Part shown: piece after piece, positions 38,046-38,964 of the stretch | How positions within the stretch are numbered: position 1 is the stretch's first letter | Layout of the letters: every line of letters starts with the position of its first letter | NCBI RefSeq assembly: GCF_030384885.1 | Contig: NZ_CP128613.1 | Reading direction: 5' to 3' (one strand) | Length of the DNA stretch: 64,000 nt | DNA from: Escherichia coli | GTDB taxonomy: Bacteria > Pseudomonadota > Gammaproteobacteria > Enterobacterales > Enterobacteriaceae | The notes under the pieces: model-generated | What the model was told of the DNA's origin: nothing | What the model saw: only the letters and a program-made list of their open reading frames with translations | Database searches by the model: none | Made by a program: the position numbers and the translations under genes

Positions 38046-38964
38046 GAATCTTGACCTTTTTTGCTGTTATCGCCACTCCCTGCCGTGGAAGTCAGCTTAG
38101 AACAATGTACTCCCCCAGGACGGCGTTTTGAAGGTCTGCAGAATAAGATTTTGCAAGAGGGGAAGACTCGATTGTGCTGTTAATAACTTAATAATGGCAA
38201 AATAATGAGGTGTATATGCTTAGTAATTAATGTTATGTAGTGAATTGTTCTGATTCTTAATTGTGAGTGTGGTTTTTTTATCTGTAAGATAATTGTTTGA
38301 AAATGCCTCGTTTAAGAATTCACTAATGAATCGTGATGATGATATTTCCGCATTACGGAGAGTTTAACAGCGTGATGATTTCCGAGGTGTCGTAATGGGT
38401 GCAAGGTGTGAAACTATTGTTAAGCGGGATTAATGAATGAGGATGATGCTAATTAATTATTATTTAATATTCAAAAAGGTTTTGTTGTGCTTATTAATAA
38501 TAGAAGATTACTTTGCCTAACATAACATAACTTTGCATCAGATAATTCGCAATGACCCTTATAAATAAAAGGTTTTTGGGGTAAAATGCTCGCATAAATG
38601 ACGGATCCCTGCTCTTGATGCCGCCTCACCATTGCTGTTTGTACGTGTTCGCGTATGACCAGCGATGCTGCACGAGAGTGGAACAAGGACTCACATTTAC
38701 ATTTATACAAACACGCGCATGTCATAAATACAAAAGAGTGAGTAACTTAATAGATATGCGATTCCTGAAGATATATTCTGTGATCTACTTCAGGCATTAT
38801 AACGGAACAATGTGAGTCGCTTTTTTAGTGCAACTCATATGCATTTTTACTTTCGTCCGGGTTCCGGATGAAACTGCCAGGGAGGCACATTACAAATGGA
38901 ATTGCTTGTTTGTGTGTGCACAGCATTAACCAGCTCAGTACGAGCCGCCAGTAAGTGATAATAT

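Follow-up and report, generated by a model that had tools for sequence, protein, structure and literature searches.

What is held by the stretch between the divergent genes alaA and lrhA of Escherichia coli, and does the GC-richer segment within it represent an element of its own? In the window, i.e. the whole 64-kb stretch of DNA analysed here, alaA (minus strand) spans 36828..38045 and lrhA (plus strand) spans 38965..39903, and the gap between them measures 919 bp (38046..38964). The initial annotation had described an AT-rich gap of ~0.9 kb, far longer than usual for a divergent promoter region, and had suggested that it may hold a long structured 5' UTR for lrhA, an sRNA or a small protein. 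Its coordinates and content proved correct. The window DNA is 100% identical to strain 2013C-4282 and ~97% identical to K-12; in K-12 MG1655 the gap measures 919 bp too and carries no annotated feature. The region is a single copy in 5,425 of 5,426 complete E. coli genomes, where it is unannotated, with 26 extra places among the 5,425 genomes.

With a GC content of 38.2% as compared to 51.4% for the whole window, the gap is AT-rich as had been claimed. This is most pronounced in the untranscribed core between the two promoters (38150..38575), which includes the A/T tract taattaattattatttaatattc at 38451-38473. The 31.5% GC of this core is the minimum over all 426-bp spans of the window, 0.09% of the spans being equally low. 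A composition of this kind agrees with the H-NS/Fis/IHF-bound regulatory DNA proposed by the initial annotation, although binding of these three proteins is putative. The GC-richer block of ~130 bp (38590-38720) exists as well, reaching 48.9% GC with a peak of 52-53% in 100-nt windows at 38575-38700. Its richness is relative to the AT-rich flanks only, the block being slightly under the window mean.

With each species represented by a single genome, 80 loci with an LrhA orthologue were retrieved, in 78 of which alaA is divergent from lrhA. These 78 other Enterobacteriaceae species show gaps of 764-1140 bp, and the unusual length is thus not an accident of the strain. Identity to the window was derived from a MAFFT alignment and rises in four blocks: the alaA promoter and leader (38046-38155, 0.6-0.9), an upstream island (38406-38475, 0.5-0.68 vs a background of ~0.3), the lrhA promoter (38526-38595, 0.56-0.74) and the last ~80 nt of the lrhA leader (38886-38964, 0.63-0.79). 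Outside these four blocks identity is near background. The sequence of the AT-rich core is mostly poorly conserved (0.22-0.48); its length is constrained. The resulting family-wide map places ~300 of the 919 bp under sequence constraint and reveals a module upstream of lrhA with fixed spacing. It is useful for the design of deletions, if not surprising.

The same map bears on the origin of the gap. The lowest GC content of the window would suit horizontally acquired or decaying DNA (e.g. an H-NS-silenced pseudogene or mobile-element remnant) rather than a dedicated control region, and so would the IS insertions that do occur (IS3 in the leader of strain WS0115A) and the 26 extra places mentioned above. 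However, gene pair, gap length and all four conserved blocks are shared by the 78 species, a promoter fragment of ~0.9 kb has been used in Pantoea, and Serratia exhibits the corresponding alaA-pigU arrangement. Moreover the region is single-copy and contains no conserved ORF. We therefore consider an origin of this kind very unlikely.

On the alaA side, a sigma-70 promoter is predicted on the minus strand at 38104..38132, consisting of the -35 hexamer TTCAAA (38132..38127), a variable 17-nt spacer and the -10 hexamer TACATT (38109..38104). The hexamers are invariant or nearly so while the spacer sequence varies, and the distance between -35 and -10 is equal in 79 of 79 sequences. The combination of an invariant TTCAAA, the variable spacer of 17 nt and the invariant GAGTACATT (given in alaA sense) points to a promoter at this site with a start near 38097. 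The corresponding 5' UTR of alaA would be ~52 nt long (38046..38097, minus strand) with the Shine-Dalgarno sequence AAGG preceding the ATG (38045) by ~10 nt, and shows an identity of 0.69-0.91 in the 78 species. Start site and leader of alaA are predicted only, based on the alignment and the motifs named.

As a side finding, the predicted alaA leader contains a candidate conserved, covarying element. It is a small hairpin at 38073..38094 (minus strand) formed by TGACTTCC and GGGAGTGG around the loop ACGGCA. The loop and the closing CC/GG pairs are invariant in 78 of 78 species. Within the stem the pairs covary (A-U 50, G-C 14, G-U 11), and 88.4% of the cells are paired, compared to 34-62% in slid registers. 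Cells with changes on both sides number 25 vs 10.4 ± 2.4 in shuffles, none of 500 shuffles reaching the observed value. The alternation of U-G and U-A fits an RNA in alaA sense only. No Rfam match and no literature on the element was found. Alternatively it could be a palindromic operator of the type CTTCC-N6-GGAAG.

The second block is an island at 38406..38475, corresponding to -188..-119 relative to the lrhA TSS, and can be summarized as TGTGAAA..TTGTTAAG..ATTAATGA-N14-AATTAAT..TATTTAATATT. A distance of 23-25 bp separates its two halves in 79 of 79 sequences, and the distance from the island to the -35 region of lrhA is 104-109 bp in 76 of 79. This conserved island is the prime candidate for a module to which regulators bind. 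Several inputs to lrhA are known from the literature. ChIP-seq and RNA-seq identified lrhA as a direct, Lrp-activated target, CpxR binds the lrhA promoter directly, and in Pantoea, where a promoter fragment of 903 bp was used, LrhA binds its own promoter region. Transposon insertions in the alaA-lrhA gap of E. coli and in the alaA-pigU gap of Serratia are described as leading to over-expression of lrhA and pigU, respectively. A search for the CpxR box GTAAA-N5-GTAAA with up to 2 mismatches returned no site within the gap. Sites resembling the Lrp consensus were found twice at ≤2 mismatches, vs 0.4 ± 0.7 in block shuffles. One tentative site, CAAAATCTTATTCTG at 38139..38153 on the minus strand, deviates at 2 positions from YAGHAWATTWTDCTR, is located just upstream of the alaA -35 hexamer and is moderately conserved.

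Where does transcription of lrhA start? A 371-nt 5' UTR of lrhA was reported by Melamed 2023 (eLife, PMC10578931). Primer SM079 of the same study fuses PBAD to the lrhA +1, followed by ATAAATGACGGATCCCTGCT, and this sequence begins at position 38594 of the window, with 38965 - 38594 = 371. As the published +1 primer maps there and matches the 371-nt leader, the transcription start is 38594 and the lrhA 5' UTR extends over 38594..38964 (plus strand). Upstream of it the core promoter (38540..38587, plus strand) comprises the conserved AGATAATTCGCAATGA at 38540-38555, CTTATAAATA in the -35 region (38558-38567) and the -10 hexamer TAAAAT at 38582-38587 (family consensus TAAGAT), which ends 7 nt upstream of the published +1. 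The distance from CTTATAAA to this hexamer is 24 bp in 78 of 79 sequences. A scan with the sigma-70 consensus missed the promoters of both alaA and lrhA, which have weak -35 hexamers. The lrhA start and all RNA data derive from K-12, i.e. another strain, whose leader differs from that of the window by 4 substitutions in 371 positions (38640, 38731, 38763 and 38941), none of them in the validated core of UhpU pairing described below.

Across the 78 species the leader measures 334-587 nt with a median of 400 nt. Since leader length and upstream spacings are kept family-wide, a long leader together with a rigid upstream module is ancestral, the sequence of the leader 5' part is not. The long 5' UTR suspected by the initial annotation is thus real, and the GC-richer block has its left edge precisely where the published leader starts. 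It had also been proposed that promoters mapped close to both genes with no transcript or protected structure in between, together with poor conservation of this block, would refute the annotation: the block is indeed poorly conserved beyond E. coli, but the lrhA promoter lies far from its gene.

The transcript ends at an intrinsic terminator (39947..39985, plus strand), read directly from the sequence as GCCGCTGGGG, a 10-nt loop and CCCCAGCGGC followed by T8. From 38594 to the terminator end at 39985 the lrhA mRNA would comprise 1,392 nt. A scan of the plus strand for terminators with loops of 3-8 nt detected none inside 38594-38964; the first one is that after lrhA, which the scan itself missed owing to the 10-nt loop.

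Both short ORFs exist as described. The one of 84 aa (ATG; 38471..38725, minus strand) crosses the promoter and TSS of lrhA in antisense orientation, and the one of 66 aa (TTG; 38615..38815, plus strand) lies inside the leader and has no Shine-Dalgarno sequence. The argument for a small protein encoded by one of them is that reading frames of 66 and 84 codons are open at all. Yet in the sister lineage Escherichia sp. L002, in E. albertii L003 and in C. koseri L004 the 84-aa frame is interrupted by stops and the 66-aa frame by stops and frameshifts. In addition, tblastn shows similarity to the ORFs only where the nucleotide sequence itself is conserved. Neither ORF is regarded as a gene, and a small protein is extremely unlikely.

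What remains is the GC-richer block. Because its left edge coincides with the published transcription start at 38594, it represents the first ~130 nt of the lrhA leader. Among 5,426 E. coli genomes, 5,404 carry it as a single copy with 95-100% identity. In the 78 species no part of the gap is less conserved (identity 0.21-0.34), and other genera have no homologous block. Their first 130 leader nt exhibit a GC content of 0.39 ± 0.07, only 13 of 78 being above 0.45, and a mean folding z of -0.6 (mononucleotide shuffles). Even in comparison with Escherichia sp. and E. albertii, 38616-38695 is the most diverged segment with an identity of 0.53-0.62, as opposed to 0.9-1.0 in the flanks. No alleles resembling the block of Escherichia sp. 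L002 were found among the complete E. coli genomes. The block is a lineage-specific sequence of the leader 5' part, not a conserved element.

An origin from REP, BIME or MITE elements was considered and rejected, as the block occurs at a median of one place per genome and never at more than two. In the two-place genome that was examined (strain WS0115A), the block is split by the IS3 insertion in the leader. Nor does the block resemble a C-rich Rho-loading site, its GC skew being near zero.

Secondary structure prediction folds the block into a long, imperfect 5'-terminal hairpin (38595..38699, leader nt 2-106, plus strand) with a minimum free energy of -39.1 kcal/mol and z of -2.48. The statistical support is modest, z ranging from -2.0 to -2.5; the whole leader scores -2.25. 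Escherichia sp., E. albertii and E. coli each fold a long hairpin at the equal position despite a sequence divergence of ~45%. The consensus hairpin of the trio comprises 34 pairs. Compensatory changes support 5 of these, whereas ~10 do not form in one sequence; for the three sequences the covariation term is only -1.2. This covariation is suggestive, not conclusive. The suggestion of a structured leader is thus supported in part, by the long hairpin (z of about -2.5) predicted for the first ~105 nt, but not for the conserved proximal 100 nt, for which RNAalifold gives no consensus structure. A role of the hairpin is plausible but unproven.

These data have to be weighed against a rival explanation. 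The block might have no function of its own and be a neutral spacer, the length of the leader and not its 5' sequence being what matters, and its GC content being average genomic composition. This is in line with the 48.9% GC of the block against the window mean, with its position as the least conserved part of the gap and the most diverged one even vs E. albertii, and with other genera lacking GC enrichment and excess folding stability there, as well as with the variable part of the leader ranging from 275 to 394 nt. On the other hand, a neutral sequence does not readily account for the near identity of the block in 5,404 E. coli genomes, for a divergence from K-12 of 1.1% of positions in the leader vs about 4% in the untranscribed part (derived figures), for the three lineages folding a hairpin at one place with 5 compensatory pairs, or for the reported Hfq-bound fragment of ~150 nt. 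We regard the spacer as a serious possibility falling somewhat short of an even chance. In our main reading, the block of E. coli probably does fold into this long hairpin and thereby sequesters the 5' end of the transcript.

Could the block, or the leader 5' part, instead be a separate functional RNA, i.e. an sRNA, a riboswitch-like sensor or a sponge acting in trans, for instance on McaS? Hfq co-immunoprecipitation reported RNA fragments of 150 and 350 nt from the lrhA leader region. McaS yielded the most RIL-seq chimeras with the lrhA leader and yet had no effect on an lrhA fusion, the authors suggesting inhibition of McaS (PMC10578931). Together with the z of -2.5 of the predicted hairpin, this speaks for such an RNA. 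It is opposed by the missing conservation beyond E. coli and by the lack of a terminator or a separate promoter within the leader. An Rfam 15 scan of 37500-40600 at E ≤ 10 returned chance-level matches only; the sole one inside the gap was snoZ40 (18.3 bits, E 3.8). Moreover the fragments are explicable as decay intermediates of a regulated mRNA. The suggested sRNA therefore does not stand as an independent gene, although Hfq-bound leader fragments are indeed reported, and a separate functional RNA appears improbable.

The better conserved, proximal end of the leader is where control by small RNAs is documented. Repression of an lrhA-lacZ fusion by UhpU is lost upon a single base change in the sRNA and regained when lrhA carries the complementary change (Melamed 2023, PMC10578931). 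According to the supplementary sequences, UhpU-M1 changes ACTGGTG to ACTCGTG, and the lrhA-M1 gBlock changes GCCGCCAGT to GCCGCGAGT. The UhpU-paired base of these mutants is C38949 in the window, which has the wild-type CGCCAGU. The pairing core validated by compensatory mutation is located at 38946..38952 (-19..-13, plus strand), directly 5' of the Shine-Dalgarno-like AGUGA at 38954-38958. In our alignment the site is Escherichia-specific, as also stated by a 2025 PNAS study.

ArcZ and RprA repress the lrhA-lacZ fusion too, and RprA is likewise present in RIL-seq chimeras with the leader (Melamed 2023, PMC10578931). In a MAPS pull-down with RprA lrhA was enriched 744-fold, and RprA induces lrhA decay. 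For ArcZ, a site is predicted at 38872..38886 (-93..-79, plus strand), where CCAGGGAGG faces the ArcZ seed UUUCCCUGG with -16.9 to -18.3 kcal/mol for the best seed duplex; it is kept in Escherichia and Citrobacter only. The putative pairing core for RprA and McaS is GCACAGC (38918..38924, plus strand), which is complementary to GCUGUGU and of which CAcAGC is near-invariant in the family. Seed duplexes of RprA and McaS map to 38913-38938 with energies that are not significant. A further near-invariant, single-stranded motif of the proximal leader is AAAUGGAAUUGCUU at 38894..38907 (plus strand; consensus AaA.GGAaTTgctT across 79 sequences). A CsrA-type GGA hairpin was considered for the proximal leader and rejected, as neither a consensus hairpin nor support in the literature was found.

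Hybridisation energy, from windowed as well as seed-only duplexes, did not identify the sRNA sites better than in shuffled leaders, 17-70% of the shuffles being at least as good. Unrestricted RNAduplex runs of full sRNAs against the leader gave whole-length duplexes without meaning. The best-energy site of UhpU-S fell into the GC-richer block (38617-38638, -20.4 kcal/mol) and was discarded, since 17% of the shuffles equal it and the validated site is 38946-38952. This failure is a limit of the method and no evidence against pairing. The coordinates for ArcZ, RprA and McaS are predictions guided by conservation, not by energy. The missing consensus structure of the proximal leader fits a single-stranded platform for sRNAs, Hfq and ribosomes.

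How the reported fragments arise can be approached by their sizes. In an hfq mutant, lrhA RNAs of ~1.5 kb and 1.25 kb rise. The 1,392 nt of the mRNA fit the band of ~1.5 kb, and 150 plus 1,240 nt fit the product of 1.25 kb. From sizes only, we infer a cleavage near +150 that leaves a 150-nt fragment and a body of ~1.24 kb. A further-reaching version would be that the Escherichia-specific hairpin protects the leader 5' end and that cleavage near +150 leaves a stable, Hfq-bound RNA of ~150 nt acting in trans as sponge or decoy, e.g. of McaS. We rate this as a rather remote prospect. If true, the lrhA leader would be both target and regulator in the sRNA network of motility, biofilm and RpoS.

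Taken together, it is highly likely that the divergent, independently transcribed genes alaA and lrhA share this interval as their control region, with four functional parts and a length-constrained filler. On one side, a sigma-70 promoter near the gene would give rise to the predicted ~52-nt alaA leader with its small conserved hairpin. Within the AT-rich, untranscribed core, the island at -188..-119 most likely binds regulators of lrhA; any positions for the published binders Lrp, CpxR and LrhA are putative. The lrhA promoter with its -10 TAAAAT starts transcription at 38594, as seen from the mapping of the published +1. The conserved last ~80 nt of the leader serve as an unstructured landing platform, on which Hfq-dependent sRNAs pair beside the ribosome-binding site. 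Such pairing blocks translation of lrhA and triggers decay, and lower LrhA leads to higher flhDC expression and motility. For the platform, pairing is shown for UhpU; repression is shown for ArcZ and RprA, whose sites are predicted, and McaS binds without repressing. The GC-richer block is probably what is recovered as the ~150-nt 5' fragment associated with Hfq once the 1.39-kb mRNA has been cleaved into a body of ~1.25 kb.

LrhA stands at the head of the regulatory hierarchy of flagella, fimbriae and RpoS, to which CRISPR-Cas has been added more recently, and its level matters for motility, biofilm and virulence. The main mechanism at this locus, UhpU, ArcZ and RprA acting on the leader and Lrp, CpxR and LrhA on the promoter, is already published, and our analysis adds little there. 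The region is hence one that is already characterised: the lrhA promoter and the 371-nt sRNA-targeted leader, plus an alaA promoter. Its closest counterpart is the lrhA 5' UTR of K-12, described in Melamed 2023 (eLife, PMC10578931) and Bilusic 2014 (PMC4152368; Hfq-enriched intervals), with which it shares locus, length of 371 nt, +1, an identical UhpU site including the compensatory base, and 367 of 371 positions. The strain with its 4 substitutions is all that differs.

Among more distant relatives, hexA of Photorhabdus, pecT of Dickeya and pigU of Serratia are orthologous LysR regulators, and the alaA-pigU intergenic layout matches the one seen here. ArcZ targets the 5' UTRs of hexA and pecT as well, though its site in those leaders differs in position and sequence from the one predicted at -93..-79 of E. 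coli lrhA.

Beyond orthologues, the leader of ompA carries a 5'-terminal stabilising stem-loop. This stem-loop and the predicted lrhA hairpin (leader nt 2-106) both begin no more than 1-2 nt from the 5' terminus. In contrast to that of ompA, the lrhA hairpin is much longer, imperfect and not conserved outside E. coli, and a stabilising role would be putative. Activation of rpoS by ArcZ and RprA relies on the opening of an inhibitory hairpin, whereas lrhA is repressed by UhpU, ArcZ and RprA, with no inhibitory structure found over its RBS. Long leaders of global regulators on which several Hfq-dependent sRNAs (ArcZ, RprA, McaS and others) converge near the RBS are nevertheless a common theme of rpoS, flhDC and csgD. 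The lrhA leader resembles them as a target of multiple sRNAs near the RBS, acting in the same network of motility, biofilm and stress.

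The alaA side of the gap carries two conserved elements on the minus strand. The first, at 38073-38094 within the predicted alaA leader, is a small hairpin marked by its loop conservation and stem covariation. The hexaloop ACGGCA and the closing CC/GG are unchanged in all 78 Enterobacteriaceae species with the same divergent pair, and the stem covaries among them. No Rfam family matched it and a literature search found nothing on it. The element could serve as a binding site at the RNA level, or as an operator of the form CTTCC-N6-GGAAG. The second element (38104-38153) is an alaA promoter, predicted from conserved hexamers and their spacing, together with an Lrp-like site. 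The -35 (TTCAAA) and -10 (TACATT) are kept at exactly the same spacing in 79/79 sequences, the window included. A generic promoter scan did not pick up this promoter. The adjoining stretch at 38139-38153 resembles the Lrp consensus.

Upstream of lrhA, a conserved AT-rich island (38406-38475) is located 119-188 bp from the lrhA start and stands out by conservation and spacing. It consists of a pair of half-sites with 23-25 bp between them, and its distance to the lrhA -35 region is constant at ~106 bp, i.e. about ten helical turns, in 76 of the 79 species. Its TGTGA-N6-TGTTA portion shows a weak likeness to a CRP half-site.

Within the lrhA leader, the motif AAAUGGAAUUGCUU (38894-38907) is almost invariant across the family and forms no structure. 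Part of the seed region (GAAUUGCUGUGUGU) of RprA, an sRNA repressing an lrhA fusion, reads in the same sense as this motif and is not its complement. The partner of this motif could be Hfq, a CsrA-like protein or another sRNA.

The leader carries insertions in some other genomes. In E. coli WS0115A (NZ_CP035882.1; comparison locus L086, 3596-5136) an IS3-family element is inserted after about leader nt 91, equivalent to ~38684 in the window, and parts the lrhA promoter from lrhA. A split alaA-lrhA gap is found in about 26 of 5,425 genomes. Such insertions could be one way in which motility is altered in nature. In Entomohabitans teleogrylli, the proximal leader is lengthened to 587 nt by a GC-rich insertion of ~130 nt with internal inverted repeats, located between the conserved motifs GGAAUUGCUU and CACAGC. 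This insertion is possibly REP-like or a mobile element.

Downstream, lrhA is followed by its intrinsic terminator (39947-39985), in which a GC-rich stem of 10 bp closes a 10-nt loop and leads into a T8 tail; the terminator scan did not detect it owing to the loop limit of the scan. Weak Rfam matches overlapping it (greA leader, RcsR1) are at chance level. The lrhA-nuoA gap (630 bp) is also AT-rich (0.36-0.37 GC). Two more long stretches of low GC content lie at 56000-57000 and 58550-60300; over 400-bp windows they reach 0.32-0.38, comparable to the alaA-lrhA core. The entire window was searched for the CpxR box (GTAAA-N5-GTAAA, ≤ 2 mismatches), and 5 of the 63 matches group at 40107-40505 in the lrhA-nuoA intergenic region, upstream of nuoA. 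Cpx has been reported to regulate nuo.
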